Shown here piece after piece: positions 1,983-64,000 of a DNA stretch of 64,000 bases. A model generated the notes under the pieces. The model made no database searches. It was not told the DNA's origin and saw only the letters and a list, made by a program, of their open reading frames with translations. Source of the stretch: Candidatus Hermodarchaeum yapensis (GTDB lineage: Archaea > Asgardarchaeota > Hermodarchaeia > Hermodarchaeales > Hermodarchaeaceae); NCBI GenBank assembly GCA_016840405.1, contig JAEOSK010000002.1, forward strand, positions 68,042 to 132,041. The letters are read 5' to 3'. Positions within the stretch are counted from its first letter, which is position 1; each line of letters begins with the position of its first letter. Made by a program: the position numbers and the translations under genes.

Positions 1983-2828
1983 TCAGGGGAGAAAGGGATT
2001 TCTTAGAGGAAACATGACAAAATAGGGATACAAGCCGACCCACGAGAGGATAAGAATGGTGATGAGGGCGCATAGGGGAATCAAAAAATAATCCGTGTGC
2101 CGTGGGCTCAATGCCTCGACAATCGTAGTTACGCTCGAAACAACAAAGATTGGGGTTATAAGCGTGAAGATGCTGAAAGACTCAAAGATATGCCCGAGGA
2201 TGAGCCAGTAAATCCCTAGTAGAATGAAGGTAAATAGTAGACTGAATAAAAACATGATGAGGCTGCCTTCAAGGCTCTTTTCAGTAACCACATTGAATTT
2301 GTGTCTACCATACCTGCGACCGATCAGGTTGGCAAAGCCATTGCCACCAGCCAATGGTCCCATGATGAGGAAAGCAGTTGGGATGAACATATCGAACTGT
2401 GGAGTACCCATGATGTCGAGAGGAACATACCAGAGATACAAGGCTGCGAAAATCATGAAGAGGATGTAGAGCAGGGGTCCTTTGAGGAGTCCCACTGAAT
2501 CCCCTTCACGGGATAGGGTACGAACGAATCCTTCATTTTGTGCATAACCTAACGTAGTGGTAATGAAAAGGAGTAGAAAGAGGGTGGGTACAGCTGCTGC
2601 CATGTATCGGCTTAAGTACGTGCTTGCAAAGAATAGACAGCAGATTAGGAAGGTGGGGCCTGCAAAGATGTAGAAGACTTTTTGGGATACATGAAGAGGG
2701 ATGGATCCTCGTTGATGGAGCATATCAATGATGCGGATTAGGACGAGGAGGAGAACAAAGGTTACGAGTGCGATGATAAAATCCCAAGTCCAATCCGGGA
2801 TGCTATATACAGCGAGGGGATTAACCAT
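1983..2828 (-). CDS. polytopic membrane protein, polyprenol (dolichol/phytol) kinase / CTP-transferase-1 family
   Basis: About 7 TM helices. GGNGFANLIGRRYGRHKF...KSLEGS resembles the GDGxADxxGRRxGxxK...KSxxGS motif of this family (from memory). Start ATG 2828 or TTG 2840. Confidence 0.5.
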   Translation of the reverse strand: MVNPLAVYSIPDWTWDFIIALVTFVLLLVLIRIIDMLHQRGSIPLHVSQKVFYIFAGPTFLICCLFFASTYLSRYMAAAVPTLFLLLFITTTLGYAQNEGFVRTLSREGDSVGLLKGPLLYILFMIFAALYLWYVPLDIMGTPQFDMFIPTAFLIMGPLAGGNGFANLIGRRYGRHKFNVVTEKSLEGSLIMFLFSLLFTFILLGIYWLILGHIFESFSIFTLITPIFVVSSVTTIVEALSPRHTDYFLIPLCALITILILSWVGLYPYFVMFPLRNPFLP

Positions 2829-2952
2829 ATGCACAACCAAACATGACGCTAAACAACTTAGTAATGAAGCTTACGATTAATGCAAATCAGATATTATCGA
2901 GTTTGCATCTCGACAGACACTGTTTTAGCTTCTAGGTGAACGAAGGAAATAC

Positions 2953-3456
2953 ATGAGCGAATCTATCATAATTCGGAGATATCAAGATAATGACCTGGTA
3001 GCCTGTCGGGATCTTTGGAGGGAATTGACAGAATGGCATCGTGAAATCTATGAAGACTCAACAATCGGCGGCGATCAACCTGAATTATATTTTGATAAAC
3101 ACTTAGCCACGGTTGGAACAAACTGCCTATGGGTTGCTGAACACCAATCCCAGGTCATTGGCCTTGTGGGGCTCGAAACACGAGATGAAGAGCTATTCAT
3201 CGAACCGTTAGTAGTCGCATCGGATCATCGGGGAAAAGGCGTTGGTTCCCAATTACTAGAGAAGGCAAAACTCGAAGCCAAACAACAGGGTGCAAAAAGC
3301 CTTAGCGTGAGACCCGTGACGCGAAACCAACGGGTTATCCAATTCTTGTTCAAGCAGGGTTTTCAGACTCTCGGGCATATCCAGCTATTCATCGACTTTA
3401 CACAATCTGAATGGAAAACAGGACCCAAATTGTATGGTTGTAATTTTAAGTTTTGA
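2953..3456 (+). CDS. GNAT-family N-acetyltransferase
   Basis: Acetyl-CoA binding motif VVASDHRGKGVGSQLLEKA. Size 167 aa. Confidence 0.75.
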   Translation: MSESIIIRRYQDNDLVACRDLWRELTEWHREIYEDSTIGGDQPELYFDKHLATVGTNCLWVAEHQSQVIGLVGLETRDEELFIEPLVVASDHRGKGVGSQLLEKAKLEAKQQGAKSLSVRPVTRNQRVIQFLFKQGFQTLGHIQLFIDFTQSEWKTGPKLYGCNFKF

Positions 3457-24054: not shown

Positions 24055-25188
24055 ATGAGCAAACCCACATATATCTTCAAAGTTCCAGTTGCCGGTGATG
24101 GAGCAGTTGGAAAAACAAGTCTTATTGTTCGTTACACACAAGGGACCTTCACTGATACTTACAAAATGACAATCGGAACATCCTTTGCGGTAAAAACTGT
24201 GGACTTGGACAGTGTGATGGTTAAACTCCAAATCTGGGACCTAGCTGGACAACCACACTTTGGTGGAGTACGCCCCTTATTCTATCAGGGTTCTACTGGC
24301 GTTATTTACGTGTTCAGCGTAATCGATCGGTCATCCTTTGAACACTTGGTTGGGTGGCTCGAAGAGGCCCGAAAGAATGCAGGGAATGTGCCCGGTATTT
24401 TAATTGGAAATAAAACGGATTTGTTGGAACAACGAGAAGTTTCGCGTGAAGAGGCTGAAGCCTACGCTGCACAAGCTGGGTTGAAGTATATTGAGACGAG
24501 TGCGAAACTAGATGAGAACGTAGGGGATGCGTTTCAGCAGGTAGCAGTTACGATTATTCAAACGAAATGGCCGGAGTGGGGAGAGGTCGTGGAAGAACCA
24601 GTCCCTGCAGAACCTGAACCCGCCGTTAAAGCTCCAGCTGAGCCAGAGCTGGAGATTGAACCAACTGAAGAACCCGCAGTTCCCGTTGAAGAACCGACTC
24701 CTGAGGAGCTATTAGTCGTAGAGGCAGAAATACCTGAAGCAACGTTTCCAGAACCAGAAATACCCGAACCCATTCCTGTACCAGAATCTGAACCGTGGGT
24801 GGAAGAGGAGCCTGTTCCCCTTGACGAACCGGTTCCAATTGAAGAACCTGCTCCAACAATTGAAAGTGTTGAACCCATTGAGCCAATAGAACCGCCGGTA
24901 TCTGAGGAACCAACGATTACTCCTGCTGAATCTGTTCCTGTGGAAACACCACGTGAAGAAGCAGATATCGTTGTTGAGCATAAGGCTGAATCAAGTCTAG
25001 TAGAGTTTATCGGGGTTGATCCCCACTCACTCCAGGATGATGATTTTGAAAAACGAGCCGTGCACGCCATGAACCGTTTGGGTGTAAGTGAAGTCGGTGT
25101 ATTGGGCACTTTTTTGCGAAGTCTTATCCGTCAAGGTCAACGTGATGTGGTAATTGAGAGTCTAGAAAGCCTTCAAGAAGAACGCTAG
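24055..25188 (+). CDS. Ras/Rab-like small GTPase with long Pro/Glu-rich spacer and C-terminal helical domain
   Basis: G1 GDGAVGKTS, G3 WDLAGQ, G4 GNKTDL, G5 ETSAK. AAGGAG precedes the ATG. Confidence 0.85.
   Translation: MSKPTYIFKVPVAGDGAVGKTSLIVRYTQGTFTDTYKMTIGTSFAVKTVDLDSVMVKLQIWDLAGQPHFGGVRPLFYQGSTGVIYVFSVIDRSSFEHLVGWLEEARKNAGNVPGILIGNKTDLLEQREVSREEAEAYAAQAGLKYIETSAKLDENVGDAFQQVAVTIIQTKWPEWGEVVEEPVPAEPEPAVKAPAEPELEIEPTEEPAVPVEEPTPEELLVVEAEIPEATFPEPEIPEPIPVPESEPWVEEEPVPLDEPVPIEEPAPTIESVEPIEPIEPPVSEEPTITPAESVPVETPREEADIVVEHKAESSLVEFIGVDPHSLQDDDFEKRAVHAMNRLGVSEVGVLGTFLRSLIRQGQRDVVIESLESLQEER
24586..24960 (+). repeat. low-complexity Pro/Glu/Val/Ile-rich coding tract (about 125 aa)
   Basis: PEPEIPEPIPVPESEP, EPIEPIEPP and similar. 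It generates mirror-image spurious ORFs on the opposite strand. Confidence 0.7.
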
Positions 25189-44470: not shown

Positions 44471-47400
44471 TCAACCCCTAAGATGCGGGTCCAAGAGTGT
44501 TTGGATTGGTTTTTCATTGAAATGTTCAACCAGCCGTTCGTAATTCCAGCCAAGCGGCGTGAGGAGAGTATCTGCTGCGCGGAGTAGCAGTTGTGCGTAT
44601 TTGTCTTTGTCGTAGTGGGTTGCAGCTGATGTGTGAGGAAGTGCGACGCGGCGTAGGGGATGGCGTGACAGGGCATCAGTATGTACGTAGCGAACGGGTT
44701 GTCCAGGCTGGATGTCTTGGCCATACCGCATCGCTAGTTCAGCTGCGATGGCTTGGCTACACTGCTGTTGATATTCGCCTGGTGACCGACTGATATTTTG
44801 GGTGATGACGAGATCATCGATAGCCACGTCACCATTATGCAGACGTTCTAGATAGTCTTTGACGATGTCGAAGAGCTGGGGCAGCATCTCTTGCATCTCT
44901 TCAGCTTCTTCGGCACCCGCAAGACAGGTCAGTAGGTCCATTTGAAGCTGCTTGATATATGGTGGGGTGTCACGGCGTCGGAGTTCGATGCCACGTACTT
45001 TGATGGTGCCATCTTCTTTGACGCCGCAGTAACGGGTTAGAGCACCATAGGGCTGATTGCGGCAGGGGAGGAACATAATCCAGCGGTAGCGCCCTTCAAA
45101 CTCCATCGACAGTCCCGTTTTCTCTTGGATGGCTTCACCTACCGCTAGATAGTCGTCGACGGTGGCTCCCGGTTTTTGGAGCCAGACACAATCCACAATA
45201 CCATGGAGCACTTGGAATCCTCGCTGTTCGCTTACGGCTTTGGTCTGTAAGAGGACGCGACGACTAAATGCCGTGACACACTCATAAGCTTCGACACGAC
45301 CAAAACGTGAGGCCCGAAAACCCAAATAGCCAAAACAGTTGTGTGTAAAGATGCCTCCTTTCCCAGCTGCGAATCCTGATAAGGGGCTATCTACTTCGAA
45401 GCAGTACACATACTTGGATGTGGGTGTTACTTTAGCGATTTCCGTAACCTTGGAAAAACCAATATCGCTTTCTATCAACTGTTTGATGAAGGCTAGTTGC
45501 TCTTGGTCTATTTTGGAGAGCGTCGGTTTATCAAGAAGTTTGGCTATCTGTGTTGTTGCAGCTGCTCGTTGAGTTCTCTCAGCTAGATCAATTCGTGGGT
45601 TTCTGACTGTTCGATACTTCTGAGCAAGCTGGCGTAAACGAGTTTCGTGAACGGGAATTCCTCTGATTAGTGAATGTGGACGTTGGCTAGCGTTCTTGCT
45701 GCGGAGGATCCGCTCGTGTTTTCTTTTCAGGGAACTGTGGGATAGGATTTCGGTCAGGCTTCGCATTCCATTGATGCGGAATGCATGTGTCACGCCTTTC
45801 TTTTTGGAACGGTTTAGCAGGAAATCGATGTCCAAGGTTAATGCCATGTAGCCCAACTGGTTGAGTAACTTTTCGCTTTTAGTGCCTATTCGAATTACGT
45901 TTCGGGTCTTTTCGATAGATCCATCGCTTGCGATGAGGCCTGCAAGAAACTCGTAACGCACTGCTCTTGGCGCATTAAGGATATAGAACGGTATTTGAAG
46001 TCGACCTTGACTCGCTGTATGTCCAATCAAGAATGCCTTTTCCAATAATTCAACGAGAGCGGTGCTATTGATTTGTATGACGTACATGTTTGCATTTGTT
46101 TCTTTACGGATCTGTCCTTTCAGACCAAAGCTCGTCGAAATGATTCGGTTGATTCTCTTGAGGAGGGCAACATCTTCTGCATTCACATCTAGTCGGATCA
46201 TGTTCCGAGTTGCACTTCCATCTCCGACAAAGAAGCCTAACAGGAAAGCTAGATTCTCATCAAGCGACACTGTGGCAGGAATCCATTTCACTAGTCCACC
46301 CTTGCGTCTTCCCCGCCCAATTTGCAACTGTCGATGTTTTTCAGCAGAGAGGTGAAGCAACTTGAAATATCGGAGGGGGATGTACCCTTCTCGCTGCCAG
46401 TTGTTGAGGGCTTGGACAGTATGACTGCCCTGAGACAAAGCAGACATGATTGTATTGCGATTCTCTATGATGGCTTTTCTTAAGATAGGACCATGGACTC
46501 TCCACGTATCAAGGGTGTTCCTAGAATGCTGGTTGAGGAGAATTTCTATGAAGTCAAATTGCTTTTGTTTCGAGCTTGAAGGAACAGATAGCATGACAGG
46601 TAGAAAGTCACCGCGTTTGAGTTGTCGAGTTTCTTTAGTCATCAATCGGCCATTGTCAAGAACATAGGATGGGTGATCGGGGGTAAGGGTAATCTCTCGA
46701 CCTCCCTCCAAAATGACCTTAAGAAGAGTGTCTGGTGCGTTAAGCTTGAAGAACTGCTTCACTGGGGCGAAGGTTGCTTTGTACTGCTCATCCAGCCCGA
46801 TAACCTGGACATCAAGATGGCAAGGTTGTACGCTAGGCGACGTAAGATGTTGGTCGATAAATTGTCCTATCTTAACAAGTTGTAGGTCACCATTGATTCT
46901 TACTGGTACTATCTCGTCAGAATCCAAACACACAACGAGCAACCATTTGAGGGCAGATTGTCGGGCTTCATAGATTGGATTGTCGTGGCGGCGCTTCTTG
47001 TAGTAAGTGCGTTTCTCAAGTATTGGTTTGAGGAAGGTAGGGACGATTCCGATTTCTCGTTGGCACAGCCAGTAGCCTAGTTCGGGGACGATGGTGGCGT
47101 CATCGGGGCAGCAGTCACAGAAGAGTGCCTCGGGGGAGATGTTGTGTTTGACCATCAGTGATGGATACATGGACAGAAAATCGAGTTCCCCCACATCACT
47201 GAACACTCCGACACGCGGAGTAATGACATGACCACCTCGGTCTGCGTTGAGCAGTTCGATGCCCGTCTTGTACTGTTCGGGGTCGGCTTTGGTTTCCGGG
47301 ATTAGCACACCACGTCTGAGGGCTTCCTGCATCTGTAGCATGTTAATCCCTGTGCCGGGGCTGCTGCGTGCCATGCGTTGTGGCGGAAAGGCAGTGAGTC

Positions 47401-48265
47401 GACATCCCTCAATCAAGCCGTGGAAGTCGCCAAAGGTCATATATGATCGGTCCAAGTGTAACCGTCCTCGCAGAATGAAGGGGTGCGGTCGATAGAAGAC
47501 TGGACCGCCATATCGGAACACGGCACGGCCAGCAGGCAAGGTCTTATCACTAAAGACGTGGGGTGTGTGGTCACGGTTCAAGGAGAACTGTTGTAACATT
47601 CCTGCCTCGCCGACGCGTTGGATGAGTGCTGGTAAAATGTGGGCGTCACCTCTCTCGGTGAAAATGATGTCGGGATTCTGGGCGGTGATCCAGTCTTGGA
47701 GCATCATGGGTTCGGTGGTCTGTAGGGTGTCCCCTTTGGAGCTGGCTGCGGTGAAAAGGTCCTCCCCTTCCAGGCGGAGGTCCACGGTGTCGAAGGGAGG
47801 GAGATCATAGTCGAGAGCCAATTGGGAGTCGCAGGAGTCGATTCGGGTCACGCGGGTCCTCGACTGATTGGTGTGGACCTCTACCTGTTCGAAGGGGTAG
47901 CGCTGCTGCTCGAGATACCACAGCTGCGTTGCAGAGAGATCGCCGTTGAAGACGCGAAAACGGGGAACGGCGAGGGCTTTGAGTTCGCGGACGACACGGG
48001 GGAGTTGGGTGCAGGAGGAAACTGTAACGGCGAGAACCGGACGTCGCGGGCCCCGCAGCTGCAGCCGATGAAACTCGGGTGTCACGGCGCTCACGTGGGG
48101 GTGACTCTCAAATAGCGGCGCATAGTCCTCGAATTGGACGCCCGGCGCATGTAAGTAGAACCGTGGCTGATAGGACACCTCCAGCGGTACACACGCCTCA
48201 GCCGTTCGTAACCACAGGATCAAATGGTCCGGCTGGGCGGTTATGTCGAGGATCCAGCCACGCAT
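44471..48265 (-). CDS. polB: family-B DNA polymerase homolog with non-canonical Exo and Pol-C motifs, interrupted by an intein
   Basis: N-terminus MRGWILDI, motif A ELDFLSMYPS, motif B KWLLVV|CFGYLG split by the intein, motif C position HGIVDC, KxY-region IKVRGIELRRRD. Confidence 0.85.
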   Translation of the reverse strand: MRGWILDITAQPDHLILWLRTAEACVPLEVSYQPRFYLHAPGVQFEDYAPLFESHPHVSAVTPEFHRLQLRGPRRPVLAVTVSSCTQLPRVVRELKALAVPRFRVFNGDLSATQLWYLEQQRYPFEQVEVHTNQSRTRVTRIDSCDSQLALDYDLPPFDTVDLRLEGEDLFTAASSKGDTLQTTEPMMLQDWITAQNPDIIFTERGDAHILPALIQRVGEAGMLQQFSLNRDHTPHVFSDKTLPAGRAVFRYGGPVFYRPHPFILRGRLHLDRSYMTFGDFHGLIEGCRLTAFPPQRMARSSPGTGINMLQMQEALRRGVLIPETKADPEQYKTGIELLNADRGGHVITPRVGVFSDVGELDFLSMYPSLMVKHNISPEALFCDCCPDDATIVPELGYWLCQREIGIVPTFLKPILEKRTYYKKRRHDNPIYEARQSALKWLLVVCLDSDEIVPVRINGDLQLVKIGQFIDQHLTSPSVQPCHLDVQVIGLDEQYKATFAPVKQFFKLNAPDTLLKVILEGGREITLTPDHPSYVLDNGRLMTKETRQLKRGDFLPVMLSVPSSSKQKQFDFIEILLNQHSRNTLDTWRVHGPILRKAIIENRNTIMSALSQGSHTVQALNNWQREGYIPLRYFKLLHLSAEKHRQLQIGRGRRKGGLVKWIPATVSLDENLAFLLGFFVGDGSATRNMIRLDVNAEDVALLKRINRIISTSFGLKGQIRKETNANMYVIQINSTALVELLEKAFLIGHTASQGRLQIPFYILNAPRAVRYEFLAGLIASDGSIEKTRNVIRIGTKSEKLLNQLGYMALTLDIDFLLNRSKKKGVTHAFRINGMRSLTEILSHSSLKRKHERILRSKNASQRPHSLIRGIPVHETRLRQLAQKYRTVRNPRIDLAERTQRAAATTQIAKLLDKPTLSKIDQEQLAFIKQLIESDIGFSKVTEIAKVTPTSKYVYCFEVDSPLSGFAAGKGGIFTHNCFGYLGFRASRFGRVEAYECVTAFSRRVLLQTKAVSEQRGFQVLHGIVDCVWLQKPGATVDDYLAVGEAIQEKTGLSMEFEGRYRWIMFLPCRNQPYGALTRYCGVKEDGTIKVRGIELRRRDTPPYIKQLQMDLLTCLAGAEEAEEMQEMLPQLFDIVKDYLERLHNGDVAIDDLVITQNISRSPGEYQQQCSQAIAAELAMRYGQDIQPGQPVRYVHTDALSRHPLRRVALPHTSAATHYDKDKYAQLLLRAADTLLTPLGWNYERLVEHFNEKPIQTLLDPHLRG
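45338..46930 (-). mobile_element. 531-aa intein with LAGLIDADG homing-endonuclease domain, inserted in polB motif B
   Basis: N-terminal Cys (VV|CLDSDE), C-terminal THN|C junction, dodecapeptide motifs LAFLLGFFVGDGSA and EFLAGLIASDGSI. Junction codons checked by hand (TGT at 46928-46930; AAC 45338-45340; +1 TGT 45335-45337). Confidence 0.85.
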
Positions 48266-59121: not shown

Positions 59122-59391
59122 ATGCCAACTAACCCCAAGAAATCAGACGACACCGATATCGAAATCCATCAAAAAATTGATGCTCGAGGATTGTATTGTC
59201 CAATCCCTGTTTACAAGACTCGACAAGCGATACTCGAAGCAAAACCCGATGAAGTAGTTGAAGTATTGGCTGATGATCCAGCGGCGGAAGAAGATATCTC
59301 ACGTTGGGCTAAACGCACTGGAAACACAGTTCTAGCCTTTGAGCAGTGTGATGATTACATCCGATTTCTAATTCGAAAAACAAATGGGTGA
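59122..59391 (+). CDS. TusA/SirA-family sulfurtransferase
   Basis: DARGLYCPIPV (CPxP persulfide-carrier motif). 89 aa. Confidence 0.8.
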   Translation: MPTNPKKSDDTDIEIHQKIDARGLYCPIPVYKTRQAILEAKPDEVVEVLADDPAAEEDISRWAKRTGNTVLAFEQCDDYIRFLIRKTNG

Positions 59392-59397
59392 AAAATC

Positions 59398-59760
59398 TTG
59401 GCAAAGAAAATATTATACGTATTGACAAGCGGCTTAGATACGCCTGAAAGGCTGTATGCCCCTTTTGTACTTGCCACAACTGCTAAAGCGATGGGTATCG
59501 ACGCAACCGTTTATTTCGTCGTTAAAGGTGTCGAGGTCGTCAAAAAGGGTGAAGCTGAAAAAATCAAAATGGGAAACTTCCCCATTCTAAAAGAAGTAAT
59601 TGATCAAGCAATCGAAGCGGGTGTAGAGCTTATGGCCTGTGACCAAAGCACACAAGTACTCGGCATTGAACGAGGCGGTTATGTGGATGCTTGTGGTGTC
59701 GTGGGAGCAGCTACGTTAAATGACCTCGCACTCGAAGCGGATGCGATTTTAACCTTCTAA
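59398..59760 (+). CDS. DsrE/DsrF-family protein
   Basis: KILYVLTSG...PF.LA..A...G..A.V.F...G pattern and conserved Cys (MACDQS). TTG start after GGGTGA. Confidence 0.65.
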   Translation: MAKKILYVLTSGLDTPERLYAPFVLATTAKAMGIDATVYFVVKGVEVVKKGEAEKIKMGNFPILKEVIDQAIEAGVELMACDQSTQVLGIERGGYVDACGVVGAATLNDLALEADAILTF

Positions 59761-59792
59761 AAGAGATACGAAATGGATGGGAGGGGTGGGAA

Positions 59793-61004
59793 ATGACAAA
59801 GCAAATCAACTTCAATCATAGTGCAGGAGTACCGGTAGATGAACAAGTACTCAAGGCCATGAAACCTTATTTCCGACAGTATTATGGTAATCCCTCTTCT
59901 GTTCACGCAGTCGGACAGCAGTCAGCCAAAGCAATTGCCAACGCACGTGTGCAAGTTGGTCAACTTATTGGAGCCGCGCCAAAGGATAGAGTCATTTTTA
60001 CCAGTGGAGCGACTGAAGCGAACAACCTAGCCCTCCAGGGCTTTGCCTATCGGCACCGCCGAAAAGGTAACCACATTATCATTTCCAAAATGGAGCACCT
60101 CAGTATCATCAATACTGCAAAATTCTTGAGCAAGCAAGGCTTCGAATACACCCAAGTTGGCGTGGACAAACACGGAATAGTGGACACGAAAGCCCTCAAG
60201 AAAGCCATCACTGATCAAACCATTCTCATTTCCATCCAACATGCGAATAACGAAGTCGGAACAATTCAACCAATTGCTGACATTGCACAAATCGCCAATA
60301 ACGCTGAAATTCCCTTGCATGTCGATGCAGTAGCAAGCGCAGGCCTTATTCCAGTGAATGTCTCAGAACATGGCATCTCCCTACTCACCCTCTCATCCAA
60401 CGATTTATACGGACCCAAAGGAGTCGGAGCCCTTTATACACGAAAAGAAGTTGCTCTTCAACCAATCCTTACCGGAGGTGGCCAAGAATATGGCATCCGT
60501 TCTGGTTCCGAGAACGTCTCGGGAATTGTGGGCATGGGGGCAGCTGCGGAACTCGCCAAGGAACAACTTGCTGATAACGTGACGCGCCTGACATGGCTCA
60601 GGGATCAATTAATCAAAGGCGTGCTAGAAAAAATCGATGATTCTTATTTGAATGGACATCCCACCCAACGGCTTCCCAATAACGCCAATATTCGGTTCAG
60701 CTACATTGAAGGAGAGGCGATAACGCTCCATCTCAGCTTTCAAGGGTTCTTGGTGGCTACCAGTTCTGCTTGTACATCCAAAACCCTCGCCCCTTCCCAC
60801 TGTTTGATGAGTATGGGTGTAGCTGAAGCCGAAGCCCACGGAGCCCTTCAACTCACTCTAGGACGTGAAAACACCCAAGCACATATAGACAAATTCGTCG
60901 AAGTACTACCACCCATCATTGAAAAACTTCGAGCGATGTCACCATTATCAAAAGATGTCCCATATGACATCTTTGAAGATGAGGAGCATGATCACCATCA
61001 TTGA
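59793..61004 (+). CDS. iscS: IscS/NifS-like protein with Asp at the PLP-lysine position
   Basis: Class-V fold motifs (SGATEANNLA, HVDAV, active-site loop SSACTS). The SGHK position reads SSND (Asp codon GAT 60402-60404). His-rich tail EEHDHHH. Confidence 0.85.
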   Translation: MTKQINFNHSAGVPVDEQVLKAMKPYFRQYYGNPSSVHAVGQQSAKAIANARVQVGQLIGAAPKDRVIFTSGATEANNLALQGFAYRHRRKGNHIIISKMEHLSIINTAKFLSKQGFEYTQVGVDKHGIVDTKALKKAITDQTILISIQHANNEVGTIQPIADIAQIANNAEIPLHVDAVASAGLIPVNVSEHGISLLTLSSNDLYGPKGVGALYTRKEVALQPILTGGGQEYGIRSGSENVSGIVGMGAAAELAKEQLADNVTRLTWLRDQLIKGVLEKIDDSYLNGHPTQRLPNNANIRFSYIEGEAITLHLSFQGFLVATSSACTSKTLAPSHCLMSMGVAEAEAHGALQLTLGRENTQAHIDKFVEVLPPIIEKLRAMSPLSKDVPYDIFEDEEHDHHH

Positions 61005-61030
61005 GCCAACACAAAGGAGATGAAAAATTC

Positions 61031-61420
61031 ATGTATAGTAAAACCGTCATTGACCACTTCACCAACCCACGTAACATGGGCGAAATGAAAGACGCTGATG
61101 CAATAGGCAAAGTTGGAAATCCAACGTGTGGAGATCTTATCTGGATTTACATCAAAGTCAAAGATGATGTTATCACAGATGTCAGTTTCAAAACCTTCGG
61201 ATGCGCAGCGGCTATTGCCACCAGTTCCATGATTACAGAAATTACGAAAGGTAAAACACTCAAAGAAGCCTATCAAATTACGCGAACTGATGTCGCAGAA
61301 AACCTGGAAGGCCTACCACCGATTAAAATGCATTGTTCAAACCTTTCGGCTGATGGGTTACATAAAGCAATACAAGAATACTTACGTAAAACCGGACGCA
61401 CTGTCGAGGATCTCAAATAA
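61031..61420 (+). CDS. iscU: IscU/NifU-type Fe-S cluster scaffold
   Basis: VIDHFTNPRN, three ligand Cys (NPTCGD, FGCAAAIA, MHCSNL). ATG 61031 after AAGGAG. Confidence 0.9.
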   Translation: MYSKTVIDHFTNPRNMGEMKDADAIGKVGNPTCGDLIWIYIKVKDDVITDVSFKTFGCAAAIATSSMITEITKGKTLKEAYQITRTDVAENLEGLPPIKMHCSNLSADGLHKAIQEYLRKTGRTVEDLK

Positions 61421-61433
61421 TCTTCTTGAAGAT

Positions 61434-61817
61434 TTATCCGGATTCTTTTGTATGCCGTTCAATGATCGATTTGAAAGTGTCCGAAGATAGGGCACCCTTA
61501 ATGAGATAATCCTTGGCTCCCATTTCAAGAACTTCTTGCACGGTTTCATCATCATCAATTGCAGTTAGCGCGACAATGGTAACATCAGGATAATCCACCG
61601 TTACTTTTCTGATGAGTTCTGTACCGCTAATTTTGGGCAGAACTAAATCCACAAAGAAGATATCTGGCGGATTGGCTTTGATTTTTGATAATGCCTCTTC
61701 GCCGTCTACAGCAGTTTCGATATCATATTCTTTGAGTAAGACTTGGGCGGCACGGAGAAATGTTTCTGAGTCATCTGCTAAGAGGATTCGTATTTTATCC
61801 GATTTCTTGGAAGCCAA
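61434..61817 (-). CDS. stand-alone CheY-like response-regulator receiver domain
   Basis: LLADDS, phospho-acceptor FFVDLVLP, ALTA, AKDYLIK. Start uncertain: TTG 61817 after GGAGGG, or ATG 61883 deep inside the upstream gene. Confidence 0.75.
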   Translation of the reverse strand: MASKKSDKIRILLADDSETFLRAAQVLLKEYDIETAVDGEEALSKIKANPPDIFFVDLVLPKISGTELIRKVTVDYPDVTIVALTAIDDDETVQEVLEMGAKDYLIKGALSSDTFKSIIERHTKESG

Positions 61818-63249
61818 TTTTGGGTTTACCCTCCACGAGGTGTGTATAGATACAGTATTGGGGTGTTGAGGGGTTAATGCCATGGAAGATGGTAACACCT
61901 TCCTTGACAGCAATTTCAACGTGAACATCAGCAAGATCAGCCAGATATTGGTTGATTTCAGGTGTACTACTATAACCAATTGTTACTGCGAGATTACTCT
62001 CAGTAGCAGTATCATTGGCAATACGTGTGGCCCATCGGGGGAGTTCTTGGGGGCCAAGCCAAGAGTGTAGCCATCCAAAACCAACAACGCTGAGTAAATT
62101 TTTACATCCTTGATTGCGGAGTTCTTCAAGAACCATGCTCCACGCGTTTTCTAAATCAGAGCTCTCTCTAAATGCTACTGTTTTGTAATACGGCTCACCC
62201 AGTTCAGCTGCAGCGCTAGTTACGCCGAGACTGGAAGCTGCACTAGTGAATAAACGAAGATGCGTGTTAAGTTGGTCCACAAAGCCATACCGTAAAGCCG
62301 CAGCTTTGAGGCGTCGGAAGCTGAGTTTGTTGGGTGGAACGATAATCACTCCACTTTCTTGGCGAATGAAATTTGCTACCATACTCAGGGCTATTGTGTT
62401 GATCACTTCATTAGCTACACCTTCCGATACGTCCATGAAGAAAGTGCTACCCCGACGAAATCCACCAAATATGGTATCGAGTTCTTTGATACCAGAAGAA
62501 AATCTACCTGCAGTATGAGGAATTACTTCGAAATCAGATACTCGGAAGGCTTGTTCTGCATCATAGGAATGTAGTGTACAAAATCGGTTGCCTCGCAGTG
62601 AAAATCCTCGCATTCCACGTTCGATGGATGTTCCACGAAGTTTGATCAATCGCAAACTTCGCCACATCCGCCCTTCCGTCTGTGTTTTTGTCACGCACAC
62701 AATTCCGTCAACTATGTGATCTAACGGTGATTCTTCTATTCCTTCCACAACTAAAATGATCTTCGCACTCAATACTCGACCAAGATTAGATAGTGCAGCC
62801 GTGAGACGTTGTGGGTCCGCCTGGGCCGCTTCAATTATTGCATCAAAGGAATCGATGAGACACACAGGTGATGTGAGATTACGAAGCAAATCATTGACTG
62901 CACTAATGAAGGTTAATTCATCAGAATAAATAATTCGAGATTCGGAAACATTACCCGATTCCAAAGAAGCTTCAGGAACTCCCATCAATGAGGGAGTTGC
63001 ATCAATGATTCGACTTTCAGGTAGAAGTTCAAAAGCCCACGGAAATTGAGTTCGTAAATTCGCACTTGCCACACGAGTTGAGAGATATACAAAATTCTCA
63101 ACGTCAAACTGATCAGGAAGTAGTTGAGCCAGCTGATCTAGCAATGAAAGCACAAATGTAGTTTTTCCAGTTCCTGACTTGCCTTTAACAAGGACCGTTT
63201 GACCTTGTTCTTGTTTCAGGAATTCGATGATTTCGTTTGGCAAGCTCAT
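61795..63249 (-). CDS. tandem KaiC/RecA-like ATPase (active N-lobe, P-loop-less C-lobe)
   Basis: Walker A GKSGTGKT, Walker B VCLIDSFD, RSLRLIKLRGT. Second lobe SSGIKELDTIFGGFRRGSTFFMDVSEGV lacks GxxGxGKT. Confidence 0.75.
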   Translation of the reverse strand: MSLPNEIIEFLKQEQGQTVLVKGKSGTGKTTFVLSLLDQLAQLLPDQFDVENFVYLSTRVASANLRTQFPWAFELLPESRIIDATPSLMGVPEASLESGNVSESRIIYSDELTFISAVNDLLRNLTSPVCLIDSFDAIIEAAQADPQRLTAALSNLGRVLSAKIILVVEGIEESPLDHIVDGIVCVTKTQTEGRMWRSLRLIKLRGTSIERGMRGFSLRGNRFCTLHSYDAEQAFRVSDFEVIPHTAGRFSSGIKELDTIFGGFRRGSTFFMDVSEGVANEVINTIALSMVANFIRQESGVIIVPPNKLSFRRLKAAALRYGFVDQLNTHLRLFTSAASSLGVTSAAAELGEPYYKTVAFRESSDLENAWSMVLEELRNQGCKNLLSVVGFGWLHSWLGPQELPRWATRIANDTATESNLAVTIGYSSTPEINQYLADLADVHVEIAVKEGVTIFHGINPSTPQYCIYTHLVEGKPKIGFQEIG

Positions 63250-63275
63250 GTGCTTTTACACCTTTTTCTCAATCA

Positions 63276-63827
63276 TTATATAGACTTTGTCGTGTGTTGA
63301 TGGAGGAGCTCGGAAATAGTCTGAAAGAGATCTTTAACGTTTGCGCCCGTTTTCGCAGAAGTTTCCATATACCCTAGCATGTTAAGTTTTTTCGCGACTT
63401 TTTCAGCCTGTTCTTTTGTAACAACCCTATCTTCTTTCAAATCTACTTTGTTACCGACCAAGTACAGGAGAACTTCGGGTGCACCTTTACGGACATCATC
63501 GACCCATTCGTTAACGCATTTGAGTGAATCTTTTCGGGTAAGATCGTATACGACGATAGCGAAATCAGTTCCAAAGAGATATTGGACTCGTACTCGCCGA
63601 AATGAAGTTTGACCTGCAAGATCCCAGACCTGTAAGGAAATGTCCGAATCCTTCGCCTTGGTCTTAAACGTTGAAATCGCTGCTCCTAACGTCGCCTTGT
63701 ATCCTTCATCGAAAGAATCAGTCATGTAACGTTTGATTATCGAAGTTTTTCCGACGGCGTAGTCACCAATGACGGAGACTTTGAATCTGAATTGGCTGCC
63801 TTTCGCTTCCATTTTTTTAAACACCAA
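63276..63827 (-). CDS. Ras/Rab-like small GTPase
   Basis: G1 GDYAVGKTS, G3 WDLAGQ, G4 GNKVDL, G5 ETSAK. 183 aa, no C-terminal lipidation Cys. Confidence 0.85.
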   Translation of the reverse strand: MVFKKMEAKGSQFRFKVSVIGDYAVGKTSIIKRYMTDSFDEGYKATLGAAISTFKTKAKDSDISLQVWDLAGQTSFRRVRVQYLFGTDFAIVVYDLTRKDSLKCVNEWVDDVRKGAPEVLLYLVGNKVDLKEDRVVTKEQAEKVAKKLNMLGYMETSAKTGANVKDLFQTISELLHQHTTKSI

Positions 63828-64000
63828 ACCCTTGTATTGGTAACCCTCACGTCAAATTGTATCTAATTAAATTTAAGCCCGTCGGTTTCATTTCGTAGTT
63901 TTTCTGCGTCATTGCCAAGTTATTGAATCGGTGGTAGATCAGACACTTGGACTCCTTTTTCGTTAATTATGAGGAGAAGCGGGTTCATTTGGTGACTGGT

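Follow-up and report, generated by a model that had tools for sequence, protein, structure and literature searches.

Asgard archaea encode dozens of Ras/Rab-like GTPases, which are usually read as forerunners of eukaryotic trafficking, and, to our knowledge, the partners of these GTPases are almost entirely unknown. A locus near one end of a 64,000-nucleotide (nt) stretch of Candidatus Hermodarchaeum yapensis DNA (contig JAEOSK010000002.1, positions 68,042 to 132,041; the whole stretch is referred to as the window) raises the question of whether such a GTPase can belong to a prokaryotic-type signalling unit. At positions 61434-63827, three minus-strand open reading frames (ORFs) encode a Rab-like GTPase, an ATPase of the KaiC/GvpD kind and a stand-alone CheY-like receiver. 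A preliminary description, made from the letters of the window alone, had located these ORFs, all of which are present, and had proposed that they work as one unit. Our comparison of related loci bears out this proposal, as the three genes behave as a conserved unit with a bounded group of GTPase orthologues and three different gene arrangements. Judged by sequence, the module is narrow in its distribution and well supported as a conserved unit, and we assign a probability of roughly 0.55 to the reading that it is a Thorarchaeota-specific variant of an archaeal KaiC/GvpD-type hub, which takes its input from a two-component system and to which a dedicated Rab-like GTPase has been added.

The comparison of Asgard loci provides the evidence that carries this reading. 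A Ras-family gene adjoins the ATPase gene in 22/22 Asgard-clade loci with upstream sequence, and the set of ATPase and receiver is conserved together with the GTPase through three rearrangements, which we refer to as clades A, B and C. In clade A, which includes the window (ATPase identity 60-100%), two small KaiC-like genes (one of them DUF7504) lie on the opposite strand, followed on one strand by a further small KaiC-like gene, the GTPase, the ATPase and the receiver, with convergent genes for NifU, NifS, (DsrE) and TusA downstream. Clade B loci (ATPase identity 41%) sit inside dense islands of PAS kinases and receivers, and their order is a PAS histidine kinase, an unannotated protein of ~245 amino acids (aa), a divergent GTPase gene, and then the ATPase and the receiver. 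In clade C (ATPase identity 43%), the GTPase gene is co-oriented with and overlaps a pair of DUF7504 and small KaiC genes, with the ~245-aa protein alongside; this side is divergent from a small KaiC gene, the ATPase and the receiver, the latter two of which stay together. The clade C locus L112, in which the GTPase gene overlaps the DUF7504 gene, has a one-to-one orthologue for each of the three small KaiC genes of clade A (45, 45 and 59% identity), while its GTPase belongs with those of clade B (57-59% identity) and shares only 35% identity with that of the window. As the clade B loci L044 and L102 share their upstream flank in tblastx comparisons, the independent arrangements are A, B and C rather than two separate clade B flanks. 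The GTPase, the ATPase and the receiver have thus been kept through an inversion and a relocation, which makes the evidence for a functional linkage much stronger than the synteny of clade A alone.

The census of gene neighbourhoods suggested in the preliminary description therefore yields a recurring triplet, as anticipated, but one that is confined to Thorarchaeota-type contigs, and the deeper conserved core consists of the ATPase and the receiver. The scan of genome contigs used a Walker A pattern, and the absence of the triad from other Asgard classes among the matches listed is accordingly weak evidence. Metagenome loci were found with an alignment of the ATPase C-terminus only, whereas an alignment of full-length Asgard sequences gave generic P-loop patterns that confirmed nothing.

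The GTPase itself (63276-63812, minus strand) is a canonical member of the Ras superfamily, matching Pfam Ras PF00071 with an E-value of 6.8e-48 and 162.7 bits versus a cut-off of 21.6. The complete set of Ras boxes that had been reported for this gene is present: G1 (GDYAVGKT), the switch I threonine, G3 (WDLAGQ), G4 (GNKVDL) and G5 (ETSAK) are each intact, and DLAGQ retains the catalytic Gln. The length of 183 aa that was given with them corresponds to the longest ORF, which starts with TTG at 63827; a start at ATG 63812, resulting in 178 aa, is likely instead, since GGTG lies 9 nt upstream of it and gene calls of orthologues comprise 179 aa. The best PDB matches are Rab6 (2e-39) and a crystallised Rab from Thorarchaeota (7ezb, 3e-31). 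The C-terminal Cys prenylation motif of eukaryotic Rabs is absent, as the protein ends in ...HQHTTKSI without any Cys, which is usual among archaeal homologues. The group of orthologues is sharply bounded: identities range from 57 to 95% and then fall to ~40-45% for generic Rab6-like proteins from Asgard archaea and eukaryotes. A GvpD-like ATPase with an overlapping receiver is encoded downstream of each of the orthologues at 61, 62 and 75% identity, and, among the orthologues looked up, the clade A type was seen solely at this locus type. The window encodes a second Ras-family protein elsewhere (24055-25188, plus strand; 377 aa; PF00071, 4.6e-50), which has a C-terminal extension of ~200 aa without a Pfam match.

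The three genes appear to form one predicted transcription unit. Between the GTPase and the ATPase lies the 26-nt gap that had been described (63250-63275, minus strand); direct reading of the sequence confirms it and reveals an AAGGTG ribosome-binding site within it, leaving no room for a separate promoter. At the other junction, the overlap of ATPase and receiver that had been noticed is real, but the 181-aa receiver ORF on which it was based is over-extended: the start consistent with homologues is TTG 61817 (MASKKSDKIRILLADD; GGAGGG upstream), which results in a receiver of 127 aa (61434-61817, minus strand) and a true overlap of 23 nt. This TTG overlaps the ATPase stop by exactly 23 nt in 24/24 related loci, even where the ATPase is only 41% identical to the protein of the window. 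The overlapping stretch (61795-61817) is dual-coding, with the receiver TTG falling inside the codons of IGFQE, the conserved C-terminus of the ATPase, and has been retained since the divergence of clades A and B, which argues for translational coupling of the receiver to the ATPase.

The question of a promoter was approached by aligning the upstream regions of 7 clade A loci. Common to all of them is a box, AAACCGACGnGCTTAAAT, ~60 nt before the GTPase ATG, which is the best-conserved block in an otherwise poorly conserved intergenic alignment (51% identical). The corresponding box of the window, AAACCGACGGGCTTAAAT (63871-63888, minus strand), resembles an archaeal B recognition element (BRE)/TATA element and is the likely promoter of the operon, which would fit a three-gene transcript. 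Beyond it, 63920-64000 is occupied by the 3' end (26 codons and the stop) of a single-domain KaiC-like ATPase gene on the minus strand, the rest of which lies outside the window. The window covers 173 nt upstream of the longest GTPase ORF, or 188 nt upstream of the preferred ATG. Downstream of the operon, the receiver and NifU genes converge on a gap of 13 nt with a perfect palindrome, ATCTTCAAGAAGAT, followed by TATTTG (61418-61431), a candidate for a shared terminator of both genes that may serve this role.

The ATPase (484 aa; 61795-63249, minus strand) had been presented simply as a tandem KaiC-like protein; it belongs to the named GvpD family, defined by PF07088 and PF20440. Its N-terminal lobe (aa 1-225; 62575-63249), a RecA fold of the GvpD_P-loop/KaiC-like type, matches GvpD_P-loop PF07088 over model positions 3-188 of 189 (1.7e-16; 61.2 bits, cut-off 24) and also KaiC PF06745 (4.2e-13), while the C-terminal lobe (aa 240-484 and the stop; 61795-62532), which is degenerate and lacks Walker A and B motifs, matches GvpD_bR2 PF20440 (9.8e-9; 35.5 bits, cut-off 27.9). 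The latter match covers only positions 2-75 of the 254 in the model, although the remainder of the lobe is conserved in the family alignment. Source annotations of close homologues likewise read GvpD. The motifs reported for the N lobe were all recovered, namely Walker A (GKSGTGKT, 63160-63183), Walker B (VCLIDSFD) and KLRGT, and in alignments of 27 to 55 proteins of the family a core of G23, G26-K29, D133 (of Walker B), E169, D181, R197 and K203-L-R-G206 is invariant or nearly so, with no variation in the set of 27. The ATPase ORF is intact in the window, but interrupted by a frameshift in L094 (3970-5342) and L095 (1180-2620), a pair of near-identical metagenome contigs; these frameshifts are probably assembly or sequencing indels, but may also reflect a pseudogene variant at the population level.

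The one family member that has been studied experimentally, GvpD of haloarchaeal gas-vesicle clusters, forms oligomers and, in a manner that depends on its P-loop, binds the activator GvpE and depletes it (PMC4390858). GvpD/GvpE and the locus described here share the PF07088 and PF20440 architecture, Walker A and KLRG, and a small partner encoded immediately downstream. However, a receiver takes the place of the GvpE activator, a Rab-like GTPase has been added, and neither the window nor any related locus examined contains gvp genes; the ATPase is therefore GvpD-like, not a GvpD orthologue. This comparison nevertheless suggests an alternative to a forward relay: the ATPase could be an antagonist in the manner of GvpD, which binds one of its operon partners, receiver or GTPase, and causes it to be removed or sequestered, so that the operon would be a self-limiting device with negative feedback. 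Besides being the sole experimentally characterised behaviour in the family, this would suit the conserved P-loop of the N lobe as well as the downstream slot of other family members, which, as a position for a partner or target, most often encodes a small winged helix-turn-helix (wHTH) regulator or a receiver (same-strand neighbours at 39 loci among the matches listed: HTH_20 9, Response_reg 6, KaiC/DUF7504 3, DUF835 2 and histidine kinase 1; the sample is biased, as the scan pattern was the Walker A motif). Nevertheless, we consider an antagonist of this kind unlikely, given the partial GvpD_bR2 match, the absence of protease and gvp genes nearby, and the tight translational coupling, which would be wasteful for a pure degradation target. 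Furthermore, direct reading of the 484-aa translation, in which no alignment to haloarchaeal GvpD was used, revealed no 'RRR' like the GvpD motif 494RRR496.

The relationship to KaiC deserves closer consideration, as the preliminary description had cast the ATPase as an autophosphorylating timer. HMMER searches against PDB sequences align residues 15-283 with the CI domain of KaiC and the first strand and helix of CII. The motif SSGIKELD..GGF corresponds to the start of CII, but GVANEV occupies the position of the KaiC GTGKT, and no GxxGxGKT is present. An AlphaFold2 model built on 55 family members (predicted local distance difference test score 88.5, predicted template modelling (TM) score 0.83) has full-length KaiC as its best PDB match in Foldseek (~500 alignment columns, E-value 6e-24), with a TM score of only 0.38-0.40. 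We read this as two lobes that both adopt the KaiC fold, but in a relative orientation different from that in KaiC. The suggestion that the second lobe is a pseudo-ATPase is thereby upheld.

That the protein might nevertheless act as a KaiC-type timer, handing its phosphate to the receiver Asp, is encouraged by the overall tandem KaiC-like fold and by the way in which KaiC systems reach response regulators through kinases such as SasA. The cyanobacterial KaiABC system with its SasA/CikA-RpaA output indeed shares with this locus a tandem KaiC fold and the coupling of a KaiC-type protein to two-component signalling. Here, however, the second lobe, which in KaiC holds the autophosphorylation site, is devoid of Walker A and B motifs, and the position of the catalytic Glu pair in the N lobe is taken by R59-V60, within a nearly invariant S57-x-R59-V60. 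Scores for the KaiC equivalogs lie far below the cut-offs (NF006799, 33 versus 408 bits; TIGR02655, 21.7 versus 546), and no KaiA or KaiB was found among the called, Pfam-labelled neighbours. A bona fide circadian KaiC was rejected on these grounds. The chemistry of the receiver points in the same direction: receiver domains take the phosphoryl group from phospho-His or acyl phosphates, and we know of no case in which Ser/Thr-phosphate is the donor for a receiver Asp. Conventional histidine kinases, in addition, are encoded near related loci. Taken together, these features disfavour an autokinase that transfers phosphate to the receiver, and make such a timer highly improbable. PADLOC models pointed to no defence system, giving only short matches at the level of the P-loop (E-values 1e-6 to 5e-4).

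The receiver appears to have kept its chemistry. As described before, it is a bare domain (PF00072 Response_reg, 1.2e-20, 74.1 bits) without an output domain. Its residues D15/D16, D57 (codon 61647-61649), T85 and K107 align to D12/D13, D57, T87 and K109 of Escherichia coli CheY, and these DD-D-T-K residues are invariant in 8 receivers, comprising that of the window and 7 partner receivers from Thorarchaeota clades A and B, Syntrophoarchaeum and Nitrososphaerota. The protein thus looks like a chemically competent phospho-acceptor that would need a histidine kinase or a small-molecule donor. It is not a chemotaxis CheY proper, scoring 47 versus 200 bits with NF041367 (CheY_Halo), and no che genes were found nearby.

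Candidates for a phosphodonor and for further components are encoded close to the module. A 1002-aa histidine kinase with multiple PAS domains (HATPase_c; L001, 1-2028; L109, 1288-4296) is a conserved upstream neighbour of clade A loci, with an EpsH/exosortase-like gene next after it; the kinase lies ~3.7 kb 5' of the GTPase, beyond the window end, and is a candidate donor of phosphate to the receiver. The flanks of clade B loci hold PAS-HisKA-HATPase_c kinases. Directly upstream of the operon are three single-domain KaiC-like genes, two of them on the opposite strand (L094, 279-3299; L109, 5257-7904), of which the DUF7504 member is probably inactivated. The same-strand gene, of which the window holds only the 3' end, is complete (2466-3299; motifs GPGTGKS, MEES and KMRGT) in the Thorarchaeota metagenome contig SMTZ1_10006173 (L094), which is identical to the window over the first 927 nt from the window end; the L109 orthologue of this gene matches Pfam KaiC with 8.2e-66. 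Moreover, the ~245-aa protein, which has no Pfam match, is a neighbour of the B/C-type GTPase at all loci of clades B and C (L044, 599-1417; L102, 2478-3215; L111, 4625-5371; L112, 307-1038) at 34-54% identity, and tblastn found it in neither the clade A loci nor the window. Its position makes it a candidate regulator of the GTPase.

While the anatomy and conservation of the locus are observed, we infer the contacts between its components and the direction of signal flow, in what is the most economical scheme, as follows. A PAS histidine kinase encoded nearby would phosphorylate D57 of the receiver, which, having no output domain and being made in step with the ATPase, would dock on the latter. 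Docking would alter the ATP-dependent oligomeric or partner-binding state of the ATPase, for which haloarchaeal GvpD sets a precedent. The Rab-like GTPase, with its intact catalytic Gln and no lipid anchor, would be a third interacting component that reads out or gates the ATPase complex by its GTP/GDP state. The three small KaiC-like proteins encoded beside clade A and C loci are probably further members of this complex.

Several observations weigh against a hub of this design with a dedicated GTPase. The clade A region is syntenic overall (>10 kb, including NifU/NifS/TusA), so that adjacency within this clade is weak evidence on its own. The spacing between GTPase and ATPase varies from 26 to ~440 nt, and some loci contain an extra small ORF: in Guaymas Basin relatives, such ORFs lie between the two genes (L003, 5668-5973, and L004, 489-794, 101 aa; L108, 1516-1713, 65 aa). 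They have no Pfam match and are absent from the window, and the 101-aa ORF of L003 and L004 is not conserved. Clade A GTPases are only 35-36% identical to those of clades B and C, and a different GTPase may have come to fill the slot instead of an inherited one. The best 150 of 6222 family representatives are 342-621 aa long, and no fusion to a receiver or GTPase was found among them; domains were checked in five, three chosen for their length (the longest included) and two for their split matches. In addition, the window encodes no histidine kinase at this locus, and the missing Glu pair in the N lobe of the ATPase renders its ATP turnover uncertain.

The synteny across unrelated iron-sulfur (Fe-S) genes, the variable spacing and the distance between the two GTPase types would also be expected if the functional unit comprised only the GvpD-like ATPase and the receiver, with the GTPase as a co-located and perhaps co-transcribed neighbour that has a separate job and is kept by synteny where rearrangement is slow. 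The occurrence of the pair without a GTPase in Syntrophoarchaeum and Nitrososphaerota agrees with this. Yet a Ras-family gene still adjoins the ATPase after the inversion in clade B and after the move into the small KaiC operon in clade C, even though the other flanks change. The A-type GTPase orthologues, which were seen only at this locus, and in the window a spacer too short for a separate promoter likewise speak against a bystander. We therefore regard a two-gene unit as rather unlikely and prefer the hub that includes the GTPase.

Outside the Asgard archaea, the GvpD-like family is large, comprising at least 738 clusters at 50% identity (E-value ≤1e-30), with members that are 23-34% identical to the ATPase of the window. 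Its partners track the ATPase clade, as judged from a rough neighbour-joining tree without support values. Syntrophoarchaeum is the closest non-Asgard relative (32-34% ATPase identity) and encodes an ATPase and a receiver, but no GTPase. In Nitrososphaerota, the ATPase is followed by a receiver, or by a HisKA/HATPase_c kinase and then a receiver (the latter in L045), whereas Methanomassiliicoccales have a small KaiC/DUF7504 gene downstream of the ATPase, and a DUF835 protein is its neighbour in Theionarchaea and Thermococci. In Thermoplasmatota, a gene for a Roadblock/LC7 protein (MglB fold) overlaps the ATPase start, in the slot that holds the GTPase in Thorarchaeota (L010/L011, 4615-5004; L015, 2546-2917; L031, 4587-4958; L065, 5763-5987). 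Immediate same-strand upstream neighbours with Pfam labels at 38 loci among the matches listed include wHTH (5), Roadblock (3) and Ras (2). The data fit the idea of a KaiC-like hub in which a switch ATPase of the GvpD type has exchangeable partners, with the receiver as the partner in the branch of Thorarchaeota and Syntrophoarchaeum.

The presence of Roadblock in the upstream slot of Thermoplasmatota and of a Rab-like GTPase in that of Thorarchaeota also suggests a bolder reading. GvpD-like ATPases could be an unrecognised class of nucleotide-dependent regulators or effectors of archaeal Ras-superfamily/Roadblock switches, in which case the module would wire a His-Asp phosphorelay onto the cycle of a Rab-like GTPase, and the ~245-aa protein would be a candidate GTPase-activating protein or guanine nucleotide exchange factor. 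We put this forward as a tentative idea that is unlikely to be correct.

Fe-S-related genes adjoin the operon in the window, where TusA, DsrE, NifS and NifU are encoded at 59122-61420 (plus strand). Such genes also flank distant GvpD-like loci, with aconitase in Syntrophoarchaeum (L005, 7845-9095) and apparent subunits of a class I fumarase in L044 (4172-5670; judged by eye from ORF translations), and this adjacency may be due to chance in anaerobes. Alternatively, the module could be a dedicated regulator of the adjacent Fe-S and sulfur-trafficking genes, a reading to which their retention in all clade A loci and the Fe-S enzymes beside distant homologues lend some weight. Nevertheless, it seems very improbable, as these genes are convergent with the operon and not co-transcribed, NifU, NifS, DsrE and TusA are lacking at clade B and C loci, and the operon encodes no DNA-binding domain; moreover, Fe-S proteins are so common in anaerobic archaea that chance adjacency is likely. 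Further away in the window, a family B DNA polymerase (44471-48265, minus strand) is split by an intein that contains a LAGLIDADG homing endonuclease (Pfam matches of the ORF: DNA_pol_B, Intein_splicing, LAGLIDADG_3 and Hom_end).

How much of this is new? A role of KaiC-like ATPases as hubs of archaeal signalling was proposed earlier (Makarova, Galperin and Koonin 2017, as reported in Galperin 2018, PMC5847659), and fusions of KaiC with receivers are described for Methanosarcinaceae in the latter article. Our module resembles these hubs in having a KaiC-superfamily ATPase with an inactivated KaiC-like domain, variable input and output partners, a link to a receiver, and a clustering with small KaiC/DUF7504 paralogues. 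With respect to the GTPase, the locus is comparable to Asgard GTPase modules with Roadblock, longin or DENN proteins and to bacterial MglA/MglB, in which a Ras-superfamily switch is encoded with a putative regulator; unlike these, it contains no Roadblock, longin or DENN gene, and its partners are of a prokaryotic type. GTPases of MK-D1 are generally not in operons with regulators, and gene order is seldom of use in tracing the partners of Asgard GTPases (Tran et al. 2024, PMC10933270), and the Asgard operon of LAMTOR1-like, Rab-like and DENN genes described by Liu et al. is a different gene set. In the literature searched, which covers Makarova 2017 only as represented in Galperin 2018, we found no description of a GTPase-KaiC-receiver combination or of a small GTPase in such a module. 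The earlier view that the composition is undescribed hence holds, within this literature, for this triad and for the small GTPase within it, but not for its components, the hub concept or the KaiC-receiver fusions, which were known already.

One Asgard Rab-like GTPase family now has conserved, identifiable partners of a prokaryotic type, a KaiC/GvpD ATPase and a two-component receiver, and these small, soluble and expressible proteins form a set that permits direct tests of what an Asgard GTPase does. Likewise, the concept of KaiC hubs gains a concrete, testable case. The lineage-wise exchange of partners, comprising receivers, histidine kinases, Roadblock, small KaiC, DUF835 and wHTH proteins, suggests that the GvpD-like family, on which little work has been done, serves as a modular switch of general use. 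If the tentative link between these ATPases and Ras/Roadblock switches were true, some of the expanded small GTPases of Asgard archaea would serve prokaryote-style signalling complexes, not membrane trafficking.

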